Origin: a virus
Strand: one strand, 5' to 3'
DNA length: 55,001 nucleotides
IMG/VR virus record: IMGVR_UViG_3300045015_000042
The position numbers and the translations under genes are program-made. Shown piece after piece: positions 1-5,370 of the stretch. Numbering within the stretch: the first letter of the stretch is position 1; every line of letters begins with the position of its first letter. The notes beneath the pieces are model-generated. The model saw nothing but the letters and a program-made list of their open reading frames with translations. It made no database searches and was not told the origin of the DNA.

Positions 1-3000
1 GGAAACCGTCTTTTAGTTTATTCAGAGTTTTTTCTAATTTGTTACTGCCGTATCCAAACCAACTTTTTTTAGACAGATCGGCAATTGGGCCATTCAGTGC
101 GTCAATCACAGGTGGAATAGCGGGTAGCATATCAGCCAGCCCCTTCATCACGTTCGCGGCCGTCTGAATGTCGCGAGGATTGAGTTTAACACCTGCGGCA
201 CCGGGACCAATGCCAAAGATTGGATCAATAATGCCGTAAGAAATAAAACTCAAGATTGCTGCAAAGTTCTTACTGAAGAAACCTGTTGTTACCTTAAGAG
301 CTTTTTCCATCTTGCTTGGCCCAACAAGACCCCACCAACGCGGTTCCATCAACGGTAATAATTCGTCGGTTAGTGACTTGATGACTGGCGGAATCGTACT
401 AATCGTCTTGGCAATCGCCTCGCAAATTTCACCAGCTTTTTTCACCCCTTCAATGTCAACTGATTCGGCGAACTTGGAAAGCATGTATGCCAAGAACTGG
501 AACGGCCCCATCATCACGAGGAATGCCAACGCGCCCATCCATATAAACGTGGAAGCCAAAGTTGAGAATATCAAAAGCACGCCCAATAACGATAGTGACG
601 CCGTTGCCGAAATCATTTTCCAAGACAGGCTCCTAATCGTGTCGGTCAACGAGGTGAACGAATCTTGAATGGCTTGCATTCGTTCTGGGGTCAGGCCCAT
701 GTCGTCAATGATCGTCCGGCCGAAGTTGGAGATCGCACTGCCAAGAGCCAAAATCGGGATCGCCAGCACCGCGAAGGCACCGACGCCCAACATCGCGAGG
801 CTCATCATCAGAACGGAGAAGATGCTCAGAACGCCGAGGACCGCCAATTTCGCGGTGGCTCCCAACATCGACATGCACAATTCGCCAATCGTCTCAGACA
901 GCGTCACGAACGTCTCGCCGATCTGCTTCATCCGTTCCGGGGTCAGACCCAGTTCGTCAAGCGTGTCGCCGAACTCGGCGATGATCTCGGCCAGAGCGAG
1001 AATCGGCAAGCTTACCAGTGCGAATGCTCCCACGCCCAACCACATCAAGCCGTATGCGTAAAGCAGGAACGGGTAGGCGATACCCAACATGCTCCAGCCC
1101 GGAGTCGCCTCAATCAGTGCGTAGGAGATTGCCCCAATACCGATTGCCAGTACCAGCCACGTCGCCGCGATGTCGAACATCCGACTCGGCGTCAACCCAA
1201 GCTCGTCAATTACGATTGTCCCGAACGCGGCCAGAATCGCAGCGAACGCCACGATTGGCAAACTCACTAGCGCGAAGGCCGCAACCGCCATGAACAACAG
1301 GGGGAGCAGCGACCAGATCACACCCAGACCGACACCCATCGTTACCCATCCGGGCAACGATGCCGTTAGAGCGTAACCGATGGCCCCGACCGCGACGGCG
1401 AGGATCAACCATGTCGCTGCAATCTGGAACATACGGCCCGGAGTCAATCCGAGTTGATCAATTACGATGTACCCGAACCCTGCAAGAAGTGCCGCGAACG
1501 CGATGATCGGCAGACTCACTAAGGCGAATGCGGCCACTGCGTTTAGCAACACCGGCATCAACGCCCAGATCACCGACAGACCGGCACCCATCGTTACCCA
1601 TCCGGGCAACGAGGCGGCAAGAGCGTACCCGATGGCTCCGACCGCGACGGCGAGGATCAACCACGTCGCTGCAATGGCGAACATGCGGCCCGGACTCAGG
1701 CCGAACTTGTCGATGACAACGTATCCGAACAGTGCGAGAAGGCCCGCGAACGCGATGAGCGGCAAGCTGACTAGCGCGAACGCCGCCACCGCACTCCACA
1801 GCATCGGATAGATCGACCACACGGCACTCAGACCGGCACCCATTGTCGCCCATCCCGGCAACGAAGCCGTGAGAGCGTACCCGATGGCTCCGACCGCGAC
1901 GGCGAGGATCAACCACGTCGCTGCAATGGCGAACATGCGGCCCGGAGTCAACCCGAACTTGTCGATCACGACGTAACCGAACAACGCCATGATTGCGGCG
2001 AACGCGATCAGCGGCAGAGTCACGAGTCCGAACGCACCTACAGCGGCCCACAGTTCTTTGTGGAGCGTGTGCATCATCTTCGTGGCGACCGGGAGTTGTG
2101 CGTACATCGGCCCAGACCGGACAATCGCTTCCGCGATTCCGGCGATACCGAGAGCCAACGCGATCCACGTTCCGGCGATCAGGAGCAACCTGCCCGGACT
2201 CAGCCCCAACGCACCCAGAACGATCTTGCCGAAGATCGCGAGTTCCGCCGCAAACACGAGCAGCGGACCCGACAACTTCGCCAACGCCTTAGCGCCCTTC
2301 CACATGTTCTTGACCATCGCGTTGATGTCCTTTTCGGCATCCGCGAGTTTGTCGAGGTGTGGCTTGGCGTAGTACAAGGCGGTGCCGATCAGTCCAGCCG
2401 CTCCCATGATCACGCCGATGATCGCGGCCGTCTCGATGACCGTCTTGATGTCCAGCTTCAATTTGCTGAACAACATGTTAGCCAACTTGATCAACACCGC
2501 GCCCAACAGCACGATTCCGATTGTCAGTGCCGCGATGATGCCGGCCGCTTTAGCGATTCTTGGTCCGTCCCCCTTCAGTTTCTCGATCTTGTCTAGGATC
2601 GATTTGGTGTCGTCGCCACCAGCCGACGCCTTGCTTTTTTCTTTGGCCGCTGCCCCGCCCGCCTTCTTCTCCGCTTTGGCGACCGCTCCTTGTTCGATCT
2701 GGGCGGCATTGGCCTTATTCTTCTTGCCGATGTTTTTGAACTCGTCGTTCTCGATCCCGTTGGCCTTCGGACTGCACAGGCAGTGAAGCAACTGACGCAG
2801 CAACCCTGCTACCGTGTCGTCTTCGACGTGAGACACGCCGCCCAAACCGTCTTTTGCCAAAGCCTCGACGCCCTTGCCCGCATCAACTCCTGAACCAGCC
2901 GCCGCACCGGGTGCAACGTCCCCCGCCCCGCCCTTCTTCTTGCCGCCGTAACCGAAGATCTTGCCCAAGCCTTTTTTAAGCACACCCATCACACCGAAGT

Positions 3001-5370
3001 CCTTGTCGGCCCGCCACCGTGCGATGGACAACGCCTGTTGTGCCGCCATCATGCCCAAGAGCGGAGCCAATACGCCCAACACTCCCGTCAAGTTCATGTA
3101 ACTTGAAAGGAAACTGCTGGTGAAGTTCCTCATCGTGTCGTTCAGTTCGCGGACGCCCTGCTCGATCTTGCTCATCGGGTCCAGAGCGGCCTTCTGTGCG
3201 GTCGCGGCTTCTTGTTCGGCCTTAGTCAACTTGGCCGACAGTTCGCGGAACGCCGCAGGGTCTTTCAACGCCTTCTCGATCTCAGAAGAGTCGATACTCA
3301 GTTCCGACTTGCCGGACGCCTTCAGCGACTCGTTGACACCCTTCAAAGCTTCGTTGATGGCGTCACGGGCTGCACCGGCGTTGCTGCCCCACGACTTACC
3401 CATCGCCTTCAGGTCGCCCTCGAAGTCCTTCCTTCTTTCTCCGAACTTGGACAACGCGGCGTTCATGTCCTTAGCGCCCTTAGCCGCCTCGTCCAAACTC
3501 GTCAACATCTCGAAGCTCTTGCTCGTTTTGAGACGACGCTCCTCTTCCTTCAACGCCAGTTTTTCTTCCAGCGTGAGGTTGCCTTGTTGTTTCTTGCGGA
3601 TGTCATCGAGGCGGTCGGCCAGGGTTTTGCTGGACTCTTTCAACGCCTTCAGCGACTGCTGCAACTCGCCGAGTTCAAGACCGTATGCGGCCTTCAACTG
3701 GAGGTTGAGCTTCATCTTGGCTTCGTCGGACAGGTTGTCGATGGCCTCAACGGATTGGACGCCGAATTTCTTCAGCATCATCTCCATGCCCTTCTCCATG
3801 TCCTTGATGCCGCCCTTCGTCTTGAGGATCGTACCCTTCATCAAGTCGCCCGTGCGACCGACCTGGGCGGCGGCTTGGAACAGGAAGGCGCGAGTCTCGC
3901 TCGACGCTTCGCGGAACAAGTTGTTGGTCGATGCCATCGCCTTGATCAGCGGTTCGATCTGCTTAGTCACACCCATCTTTTGGGCGTTGGCGGCGATCTC
4001 CATGACGTTCTTGGCTGCGCTCGCACTCAACATGGCGGCGTTGCGGAGAACCTCAACGAAGTTGTCACCCTGTTTGACGGCGTTGGCGAGTTCCTTGCCC
4101 GTCAAGCCTGTGTAGCGTGCGATGTCCCGCATGCCCCGCCCCATTTCGGCGATCTGCATGGTGGACATGTTGTACTGGTTGTTCCACTTGATGAACTCTT
4201 CGGTCAGTTCGCCGGCCTCAAGACCCAACTGCTTCTCGGTGTTCAACTGGGCCGTCGTAACCGCCATCGCGATCTTCTGGTCCTTGATGCCCGACTTCAG
4301 AGCCTTCAGGTAAGACGCCTGGAACTCGGAGCGGCCGACGCCGGTTGTCTTGGCGGTCTTGCCGATGTCCGTCATCGCGTCTTGAAGACCTCGTGTCTCG
4401 GCTGTCAGACCTTGCGTCTCGTTGATCGCGGCCCGCGTCTCTTTGATGAACTTGACTTCTTCGTGTACGGCTTCCTTGAACATGGACTTGAAGGTGCCGA
4501 GGAACGTATCCTTCAAGAAACTCATGTCCTTCGAGAAGACGAAAAACGCCTCTTGAAGATCGGCGACGTGGCCGATGAAACCTTCAAGTGCGTCATCCGT
4601 CGCCATCATGTCTTCGCGGTGCTGACGATAAGCCCTTCGACCCCGCGTGAGCGAGTCGTTCATGCCCTCGTTTGACGTGGTCGCGGCATTCATGGCCGCT
4701 TCAAATGCTCTGGCACGGTCCATCGGACTCGGCCCGCCACCGCCCCCGCCACCACCCCCGCCACCACCGCCACCCGATGGTGCCGCACTCGGAGCCGCCC
4801 TTTCTGTCGGCGAAGGAGCTACGGATGGGGTCTTGTCAACGACCGAAGAACCCGGACAGCATGCTTCGATGGCGGCTTTCAAGCCGCCTAGCAGTCTGTG
4901 TGTTTCTTGGTCGTGTGTGAAGAACTTGCCCGGCGTTGACGCCATATCTTTCATTGCACGAATGTCGGACGCCTGACCAGCAAACGCGGTTTTGAATTCG
5001 CCCTTGACGTAGTCTAAAACGGCCTGAGTGTTCGTTTGAATCACGCCCAAGGAACCGCTTACGTCGCCGCCGAGAGTTGGGGTTCCCGTTCCCTTGCCGA
5101 TGTTGTCGATCTTCTGGCCGAGTTCGTTCATCACCCGCTTCAGGCCCGATATTTCTTCAGCGAAACTCGAACTCATTTCGTTCAAAGCTGCTTCGATTGA
5201 CTTGCACTGGGACGACGTTTTCTGGCTGATGACCGACGCGACTTCCCCGACAACTGACTTCATACCGGCGGTGATCGAACTTTTCAGTTCGTCCCACTGG
5301 TTTGGGTCGATGTTCATGTTTACGTTGCGGCCGATTGCATCGACTACGACGTGAAGTTGCGGATCAGCCA
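1..5370 (-). CDS. Giant tail tape-measure-like protein, partial (start ATG ~5368-5370; 3' end beyond window start). N-terminal ~900 aa are coiled-coil, followed by a poly-Gly linker, then 7 or more ~80-aa hydrophobic repeat units (GxxAFALVSLPxxAFAxxLAxFGxxVIDxxGLTPxRMFxIAATWLxLAxxxGAIxYAL).
   Basis: The minus frame whose upper end is 5370 is open across the whole 5.37 kb. No minus ORF of this frame appears in the track, which is what a partial ORF without a stop would give. An AGAGGA Shine-Dalgarno lies 6 nt upstream of the ATG. All plus-strand ORFs here are compositionally biased antisense frames (poly-Pro opposite poly-Gly). Repeat architecture and size are typical of tape measure proteins. 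Confidence 0.7.
1030..2300 (-). repeat. Tandem ~240-bp coding repeats (5 or more units, 80-95% identical; near-identical 60-70 bp stretches at ~1626 and ~1866) inside the tape-measure-like gene.
   Basis: Direct comparison of the 1166-1405, 1406-1645, 1646-1885 and 1886-2125 units; more diverged units extend to ~700 and ~2300. Confidence 0.75.
4738..4782 (-). repeat. GGN codon run encoding about 14 consecutive Gly in the tape-measure-like protein (antisense reads as poly-Pro).
   Basis: Sequence ccaccgcccccgccaccacccccgccaccaccgccaccc on the plus strand. Confidence 0.7.

Follow-up and report, generated by a model that had tools for sequence, protein, structure and literature searches.

In P2, Mu and T4-like phages, the tail tape-measure gene stands in the slot directly before the gpV/gp25/gp6-type baseplate genes. 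A giant gene that apparently belongs to the same class is found at the left edge of the stretch of DNA analysed here (IMG/VR virus record IMGVR_UViG_3300045015_000042; 55,001 nucleotides, hereafter the window). Its visible part most probably encodes the N-terminal two-thirds of the tail tape-measure and ejection protein of a huge contractile-tailed phage with a genome of hundreds of kilobases. A preliminary description of this DNA had proposed a giant tape-measure-like gene of a jumbo phage, and the proposal is now backed by gene position, predicted fold, profile comparison and relatives on contigs of up to 670 kb that are classed as viral in IMG/VR and GenBank. Gene context is the strongest evidence. 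In the relatives L001, L002 and L003, the giant gene lies directly upstream of baseplate hub genes and on the same strand.

Comparison with described tape measures

Tape measures of giant size are already known, as are membrane segments in tape measures and changes in length driven by repeats. Deletions in the TP901-1 tape measure demonstrated that protein length sets tail length (PMC5099701), and the same relation in lambda is credited to Katsura and Hendrix where they are cited in PMC12619734. Hydrophobic segments are a known feature of tape measures such as those of TP901-1 (PMC5099701) and T4 (gp29; 10.64898/2026.03.06.709160), and there is direct evidence that gp29 forms a channel after ejection (bioRxiv 10.64898/2026.03.06.709160).

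The giant protein shares several features with the TP901-1 tape-measure protein (TMP) and P2 gpT. Its gene is located just before distal-tail and baseplate genes, it is predicted to be all-alpha, short helices with recurring G-[LV]-[ST]-x-x-E-type turns make up a core that is its best-conserved portion, this core is followed by hydrophobic regions, and internal repeats appear to tune its length (PMC5099701). It differs in being approximately three times longer, in scoring below the threshold of every curated model, in having at least 15 strongly hydrophobic helices instead of 3, arranged in tandem units of 84 amino acids (aa), and in the absence of a frameshifted chaperone pair upstream of its gene. 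The TP901 family core region is presumably the one modelled by TIGR01760/PF10145. The two groups also differ in their reach among sequenced phages. The TP901-1 tape measure matches 2,393 phage records at E ≤ 1e-10, while the core of the giant protein has a sole match at E ≤ 1e-3 among 50,697 GenBank phage records (LR756511.1, annotated as ‘uncultured phage’, 595,163 bp).

Like T4 gp29, the giant protein is associated with a contractile-tail context, a gp25-like neighbour and a gp2-like protein in the same phage. In both, a helical part at the N-terminus is combined with a flexible low-complexity linker, a hydrophobic segment and a bundle of helices, and the membrane conduit proposed for gp29 after ejection (10.64898/2026.03.06.709160) may have a parallel here. 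Unlike the giant protein of about 2,700 aa, gp29 has 590 aa and one predicted transmembrane segment. The hydrophobic array of the giant protein follows the conserved helical domain, and its linker is Gly-rich where that of gp29 is Pro-rich. No sequence similarity between the giant-protein core and T4 gp29 was detected in the tblastn search of the phage records.

In size, the giant protein falls into the class of multi-thousand-residue tail-lumen proteins represented by Thermus phages P23-45 and P74-26, whose tails exceed 800 nm (PMC9022992). Phage G also has a multi-thousand-residue tape measure, with a lysin domain (PMC12484599) of a kind not detected in the giant protein. None of P23-45/P74-26, phage G or phiKZ was matched by tblastn with the core. 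Another giant tape measure of a jumbo phage is gp181 of phiKZ. T5 pb2 and lambda gpH resemble the predicted protein in combining a ruler with a membrane-inserting segment that is expelled at infection (PMC5099701; 10.1101/2022.09.20.507954), and differ from it in being siphovirus proteins with a few hydrophobic helices. Three features of the locus described here are new: a large family unseen by the annotation libraries tried, a tandem array of 84-aa double-helix hydrophobic units that is several-fold larger than the hydrophobic regions of model tape measures, and the pairing of the giant gene with a gp2-like gene in place of chaperones. To our knowledge, no array comparable to these seven to eight tandem hairpin units has been described in T5 pb2 or lambda gpH.

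Gene context in relatives

The loci of the relatives are syntenic with the window, as can be seen from the same divergent genes on the other side of the giant gene. One of them encodes a protein with a shoulder domain of the major vault protein; another, shared with L001 and L020, encodes a PolyA_pol-type nucleotidyltransferase. In L001 (a 586.5-kb contig) and L002, the genes on one strand are, in order, a 161–164-aa gene, the giant gene, and genes for products of 176, 106 and 474–480 aa, followed by a baseplate module. The 106-aa product is a baseplate wedge protein (phrog_7145, 1e-14). The module then continues with products of ~720 aa (Phage_base_V, a gpV-like spike), 143 aa (GPW_gp25; phrog_261, 3e-19), ~516 aa (TIGR02243 baseplate assembly, gp6/J-like; phrog_219, 6e-25) and ~1,046 aa (Tail_P2_I, P2 gpI-like). 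In LR756511.1, a 1,640-aa homologue of the giant protein is followed by open reading frames (ORFs) of 208, 719, 742, 135, 522 and 617 aa, the sizes of which match the module.

The gp25-like and gpV-like neighbours indicate a contractile tail and thus a phage of the myovirus type. The preliminary description had left the choice between a siphovirus and a myovirus, and of these the myovirus stands. A siphovirus tail was considered and rejected, as both kinds of neighbour mark contractile systems.

The giant open reading frame

On the minus strand, a frame without a stop codon extends from 5371 to the window edge at 2 (1,790 codons; 2..5371). It comprises the 5′ part of the giant gene, is supported by the open frame itself, a coding-type distribution of guanine and cytosine (GC) and homologues, and has its C-terminus cut off. 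Approximately 920–980 C-terminal codons are expected beyond the left window edge, because the full-length relatives have 2,707–2,767 aa. The predicted start is the ATG at 5371–5369, and the only in-frame stop upstream of it is the TAA at 5374–5372. Direct reading of the sequence locates a Shine-Dalgarno motif, AGAGGA, 3 nt before the ATG (5375..5380, minus strand). The predicted start position is conserved in the relative P0002, which begins MAD-QIHVIVD where the giant protein begins MADPQLHVVVD. The frame as originally described, open for 5.37 kb on the minus strand from an ATG at about 5370 with AGAGGA, is thereby confirmed. It is missing from the ORF track only because the track omits frames that are cut by an end of the source, and it is the only ORF of more than 800 aa in the window.

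The GC content of the giant gene by codon position (0.55/0.44/0.72) is the coding pattern of the window. The plus-strand ORFs that overlap it have the mirror-image pattern (e.g., 0.79/0.38/0.54 for 3212–4675), and one of them, 4647–4976, reads Pro14 opposite a run of glycines. This is in keeping with the original view of these ORFs as artefacts, with poly-Pro opposite poly-Gly. An exact 50-mer from the left window edge had no match in IMG/VR or JGI metagenome contigs, and megablast of window positions 1–8000 against the 50,697 phage records returned no match.

A large protein family with a conserved core

The giant gene is a real, conserved gene of a large family. A word-indexed search recovered 50 homologues of 1.3–3.1 thousand aa, the closest of which are P0001 (2,767 aa, 49% identity) and P0002 (2,707 aa, 43% identity over the full visible length). 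Common to all homologues is a core of approximately 500 aa (aa 285–785 here), 27–53% identical to that of the giant protein (27–60% when viral loci are taken in), which always begins approximately 100–300 residues from the N-terminus. A profile of this core matched 444 cluster representatives (clustering at 50% identity), with E ≤ 1e-30 for 382 and with the longest at 5,363 aa. In IMG/VR, 16 viral contigs encode relatives of the core. Contigs of 181, 254, 307, 586 and 670 kb bear a gene related either to the giant gene or to the 164-aa gene next to it.

The giant protein had no match in Pfam, PHROG or NCBIfam, and the full-length relatives P0001, P0002 and P0049 had none in Pfam. In the hidden Markov model (HMM) searches for tape-measure models that the preliminary description had suggested as a check, no curated model matched. 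Sequence searches of the PDB with the core profile, the profile of the 164-aa protein and P0001 likewise returned no match. An enzymatic (lysin) domain was detected neither in the visible part nor in the full-length relatives. The distant family member P0049 (2,160 aa) has precomputed Pfam hits to PF28501 and PF28147, both absent from the Pfam copy searched, and newer Pfam releases may already model parts of this family.

Longer family members also contain more repeat sequence: among 171 proteins of 1,000–5,363 aa, r is 0.86 between total length and residues in internal repeats, as measured by self-BLAST with 120-aa fragments. The shortest repeat offsets are mostly 60–90 aa, and the count of hydrophobic segments also rises with length (r = 0.73).

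Predicted fold and remote homology of the core

An AlphaFold2 model of the core, built from a 17-sequence alignment (predicted local distance difference test, pLDDT, 81; predicted template-modelling score, pTM, 0.78), is all-alpha with ~25 mostly short helices. Foldseek searches of BFVD, a library of predicted viral structures, returned 10 matches to this model at E ≤ 1e-3. Among the top 50, nearly all named matches are tape-measure or minor-tail proteins, the others being labelled uncharacterised. In the top 25, a single named match falls outside these groups (‘Uncharacterized protein’, rank 26 of the list), and the tape-measure and minor-tail matches have E values of 3e-4 to 3e-3 and probabilities of 0.98–1.0. 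The same model found nothing in the PDB (best E 0.096), which argues that the BFVD signal is more than a general match between helical proteins. The predicted core fold thus resembles that of TP901-type tape-measure cores, with TM-scores of only 0.2–0.4.

Profile comparison gave a concordant signal. The core alignment of 51 family sequences was compared by hhalign with a profile of 15 annotated TP901-1/P2 gpT-type cores from GenBank phage records. The local alignment had a P value of 1.6e-4 and a probability of 50% over 185 columns (query 130–330, template 215–434), and the global alignment a P value of 1.1e-7 and a probability of 91%. Reversed-sequence controls gave 0.08–0.23 (local) and ~0.008 (global), and a template profile of 15 sequences gave a stronger signal than one of 7. 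These comparisons suggest, and do not prove, a remote homology between the family core and the TP901-1/P2 gpT cores.

Protein layout and hydrophobic repeats

All the segments of the giant gene described below are on the minus strand, and their order is conserved: a variable N-terminus, a Gly-rich linker, the core of ~500 aa, a Gly/Ala/Lys linker, the 84-aa array and a second repeat type. The N-terminal region (aa 1–199; 4775..5371), in which relatives align loosely, is Ala/Pro/Ser-rich at its end and has a weak, helical, sub-threshold match to Baculo_PEP_C at aa 24–92, the only hint at the coiled coil named in the preliminary description. It is followed by a Gly14 linker (aa 200–213; 4733..4774) that includes a 12-nt unit repeated three times; this is the (Gly)14 run previously noted, now placed precisely. 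The conserved all-alpha core of ~25 helices (aa 285–785; 3017..4519), delimited by homologues, AlphaFold2, Foldseek and hhalign, includes the first hydrophobic segment by hydropathy (aa 759–777). A linker composed of 18% G, 16% A and 16% K (aa 786–942; 2546..3016) then leads into a hydrophobic helix array (aa 943–1640; 452..2545).

By Kyte-Doolittle hydropathy, the array contains 15 segments with a mean of at least 1.8, or 24 with a mean of at least 1.6, and 9% charged residues. The same method finds three segments in P2 gpT and three in the TP901-1 tape measure. The giant protein is all-alpha in the part covered by the core model (aa 285–785), with 15–24 hydrophobic segments in addition.

Seven tandem units of 84 aa (252 bp; 581..2338) and a subsequent partial eighth unit were recognised from a motif, from Tandem Repeats Finder and from a unit HMM. 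Each unit consists of two strongly hydrophobic helices linked by a conserved polar loop, FG..ID..GL[ST]PxRM. The motif GL[ST]P[GSE]R[ML] occurs at aa 1056, 1140, 1224, 1308, 1392, 1475 and 1559 (spacings 84, 84, 84, 84, 83 and 84), Tandem Repeats Finder reports a period of 252 with 3.5 copies and 78% matches at 1157–2035, and the unit HMM matches seven full units and one partial unit at aa 1012–1638. At the DNA level, units 2–4 are 72–77% identical to one another and 61–69% identical to unit 5, and identities involving the outer units are 33–52%. An exact match of 75 nt connects unit 2 (1872–1946) with unit 3 (1620–1694); this direct repeat, spanning 1620..1946, is a possible substrate for recombination. 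A second repeat type of ~92 aa per unit, with IPPVI at aa 1660 and 1752, occupies the remainder of the visible sequence (2..451) and runs on for several more units in relatives.

The repeats as originally sketched needed some revision. The minimum of seven units was correct, while the period is 84 aa (252 bp) and not ~80 aa (240 bp). The label ‘high-identity’ does not fit identities of 72–77% in units 2–4 and 33–52% in the outer units, despite the one exact match of 75 nt. As for the conserved Trp and Pro, every one of the seven units has the Pro (in GL[ST]P), and conservation of the Trp (in AATW) is limited to units 1–5.

Evolution of the repeats and the linker

The 84-aa units are also present in P0001 and P0002, and their number stays near 7–8 across the compared genomes, which answers the earlier suggestion that repeat copy number be compared among relatives. 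Within genomes, unit identity reaches 71–80% among units 2–4 of the window, 72–81% among units 3–5 of P0001 and 48–66% among units 3–6 of P0002. Between any two of the three genomes it is at most 58%. Such homogenisation of the internal units within each genome is the signature of concerted evolution or repeated internal duplication. Units 6 and 7 of the window are 44–58% identical to unit 7 of P0001 and unit 6 of P0002, and the last units look orthologous between genomes.

The aligned linker position is Gly-rich in other family members too, over different lengths: P0003 has GGGGGGGAKGG, the stretch of P0005 is longer and made up of Gly, Asn and Ser, and that of P0001 is short. The Gly run of P0009 lies further upstream. 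Elsewhere in the family, Gly runs reach 11 residues at most; a run of 14 occurs only in the giant protein of the window. The idea that the repeats and the run of GGN codons are hotspots of length variation is thus supported on an evolutionary scale, by the homogenised units, the correlation of length with repeats and the variation of the linker. Three metagenome contigs with an identical 164-aa gene end inside the giant gene (L021, L022 and L020, at window positions 4814, 4822 and 5017). L021 and L022, which represent a 96%-identical strain, end 40–48 nt before the Gly14 run. Their assembly may have broken at the low-complexity linker, or the linker may be heterogeneous; neither is proven.

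The upstream 164-aa gene

Upstream of the giant gene, a minus-strand gene (5382..5876) encodes a 164-aa protein that fold, PHROG match and synteny mark as a candidate DNA-end protector of the T4 gp2 type. With 10 nt between its stop codon and the giant-gene ATG, the two genes are apparently linked in translation and probably co-transcribed. It occupies the same position in L001, L002 and L020, and an identical protein, P0185, is encoded on a JGI contig of 253,983 bp. The protein is 80% identical to its homologue on the P0002 contig, where the giant protein is only 43% identical.

The AlphaFold2 model of the 164-aa protein has a pLDDT of 72.5. Its named Foldseek matches in BFVD are gp2/DNA-end protectors (E 1.2e-4 to 4.5e-2, TM-score 0.4–0.5), among them those of Serratia phage Muldoon, Agrobacterium phage Atu_ph04, Prochlorococcus phage P-HM2, Tenacibaculum phage pT24 and Campylobacter phage IBB35. 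Sequence searches added a weak match to phrog_429 (E 0.0078) and none in Pfam or NCBIfam. Based on its model, the protein looks like a DNA-end protector of the T4 gp2 type. A tail tube protein or a chaperone was also considered for this gene and rejected, given the gp2-like fold and the lack of a frameshift partner. An overlapping ORF (5386–6228) shares the end region of the gene and is without coding GC phase.

The single small gene upstream that was reported earlier is therefore gp2-like, with plus-strand genes beyond it, and the usual order of major tail, chaperone and tape-measure genes is indeed absent. A gap of 118 bp (5877..5994) separates the divergent gene sets, as defined by ORF positions. 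No sigma-70-type promoter was found in 5300–7000, a region that includes this gap.

Proposed function and alternative explanations

We infer the ruler function of the giant protein, and the length of the tail, by analogy with lambda gpH, TP901-1 TMP and T4 gp29. Several copies of the protein would fill the lumen of the tail tube. The baseplate hub would hold the C-terminus, and the N-terminus would come to lie close to the tail terminator and to the DNA end with its gp2-like protein. Protein length would set tube length, and ~2,700 aa at ~0.15 nm per residue would give up to ~400 nm; this is an upper estimate, because the folded core and the membrane hairpins need not be extended. After contraction of the tail, the protein would be expelled, and the array of hydrophobic hairpins would enter the cytoplasmic membrane of the host, where it would form or line a conduit for a very long genome. 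Length may evolve through gain, loss and homogenisation of tandem units, together with slippage in the Gly-rich linker.

Several results weigh against the tape-measure assignment. The TM-scores of the core in BFVD are low (0.2–0.4, with a large root-mean-square deviation), as is expected of flexible helical arrays, and because tape measures are the commonest long all-alpha proteins in the viral library, the BFVD matches could be biased towards them. The local hhalign probability of 50% is below the usual criterion of 90–95%, and comparisons of the core with the single sequence of P2 gpT or of the TP901-1 tape measure remained at control level. When 17 family cores were searched against PHROGs and Pfam, none matched a tape-measure family, the best hit being phrog_167 (E 0.02) for 1 of the 17. 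The baseplate module is seen in the relatives only, because the window ends inside the giant gene, and a scan of 30 window ORFs yielded no match to a tail sheath, tube, capsid or terminase family. Upstream of the giant gene, the gp2-like gene stands alone, without the usual sheath, tube and frameshifted-chaperone genes.

The main rival explanation, which overlaps heavily with the favoured model, is that the giant protein is an ejection or ‘pilot’ membrane protein, packaged in the virion, that forms a conduit together with the gp2-like protein, while another, unseen gene encodes the ruler. Its ~700 aa of hydrophobic helices, five times the segment count of P2 gpT or the TP901-1 tape measure by the same method, would suit such a role, as would a conserved core that is compact rather than one long helix. 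The gp2-like neighbour (T4 gp2 travels with the DNA end) and the absence of a chaperone pair upstream point the same way. Against this stand the location of the gene, precisely where a tape measure is expected ahead of the baseplate hub genes, the resemblance of fold and profile to tape-measure cores, and a five-fold range of length generated through repeats, as a ruler would show. The visible tail module also contains no other long ORF, and known tape measures unite the ruler and membrane roles (10.64898/2026.03.06.709160), so that the two readings overlap. We consider a pilot protein without a ruler function rather unlikely.

An origin in a cellular or plasmid contractile injection system (a tailocin, an extracellular contractile injection system or a type VI secretion-like system), or in a host membrane protein encoded on a bacterial contig, is a good deal less probable still. 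The closest full-length relative (100% coverage) is located on a 586-kb contig of genome assembly GCA_040384205.1, such baseplate genes are common to contractile injection systems, the window encodes an AAA ATPase, and the scanned ORFs include no capsid or terminase gene. Yet relatives occur on the 16 IMG/VR viral contigs and on the 595-kb ‘uncultured phage’ LR756511.1, and none was confirmed in 185,579 representative prokaryote genomes (one per species), within the limits of the peptide patterns used. A neighbour resembling a DNA-end protector makes sense only for a virus that packages DNA, and a window composed almost entirely of ORFans plus a CCA-type nucleotidyltransferase is typical of huge phages. 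In the loci of extracellular contractile injection systems, moreover, the tape measure comes after the baseplate genes and not before them. That the frame is spurious, a product of base composition, would accord with the many long non-coding ORFs on both strands of this GC-rich window. It is at odds with 1,790 stop-free codons in coding-type GC phase and is already refuted by hundreds of homologues with a conserved start and domain order, which makes it next to impossible.

The tape-measure and ejection-protein reading can be extended to a more specific proposal, which is conceivable and at present rather doubtful. In this proposal, the family is an unrecognised tape measure of huge environmental phages, and its 84-aa units are a modular ‘membrane-hairpin array’. 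With 7–8 units in each of 3–6 chains per tail, the array would assemble after ejection into an unusually large or long conduit for a genome of >250–600 kb, with the number of units kept roughly constant and their sequences homogenised within each genome.

Tape measures are often left unannotated in large environmental phages. According to a passage in a survey of one large aquatic phage lineage, the tape measure could not be identified in any of its members (PMC12619734). A profile of the ~500-aa core could place the tail module in such genomes and help to estimate tail length. The hydrophobic-hairpin array far exceeds the one to six predicted membrane helices of model tape measures and offers a test case for DNA conduits, while the homogenisation of units within genomes offers a clean example of concerted evolution in a structural phage gene. 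The general view of phage tail construction is unchanged.

Other features of the window

A plus-strand gene divergent from the tail genes (6938–8977) has a 679-aa product in which the shoulder domain of the major vault protein was recognised (PF11978, 6.7e-21), along with a weak Vault_3 repeat. L001 (881 aa), L002 (887 aa) and L020 have a counterpart in the same place. The sole report of viral homologues of the major vault protein so far is a 2023 preprint (10.1101/2023.11.10.566534). Further along the plus strand (13598–15148), a 516-aa protein belongs to the PolyA_pol/tRNA nucleotidyltransferases (PF01743, 4e-20; phrog_2244), which are also encoded near the giant gene in L001 and L020. L002 has a domain of the alanyl-tRNA-synthetase type (PF01411) instead. 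The window yielded no tRNA genes.

Most of the other large ORFs in the window have no Pfam or PHROG match. Those with a match include a gene with a weak similarity to HNH endonucleases (22005–23195, plus strand; phrog_5200, 4e-5), an AAA-family ATPase (25748–26935, plus strand; PF00004, 8e-12), a 433-aa protein whose first 122 residues match a family of unknown function (32214–33515, minus strand; phrog_5960, 4.6e-19) and a 376-aa ADP-ribosylglycohydrolase (39028–40158, minus strand; phrog_6572, 2.9e-64). The composition of the window shifts at ~44,000. From there to its end at 55,001, the GC content rises from ~0.53–0.57 to 0.60–0.62 and the AT skew reaches approximately −0.2. Coding is mostly on the minus strand before this shift and mixed after it.

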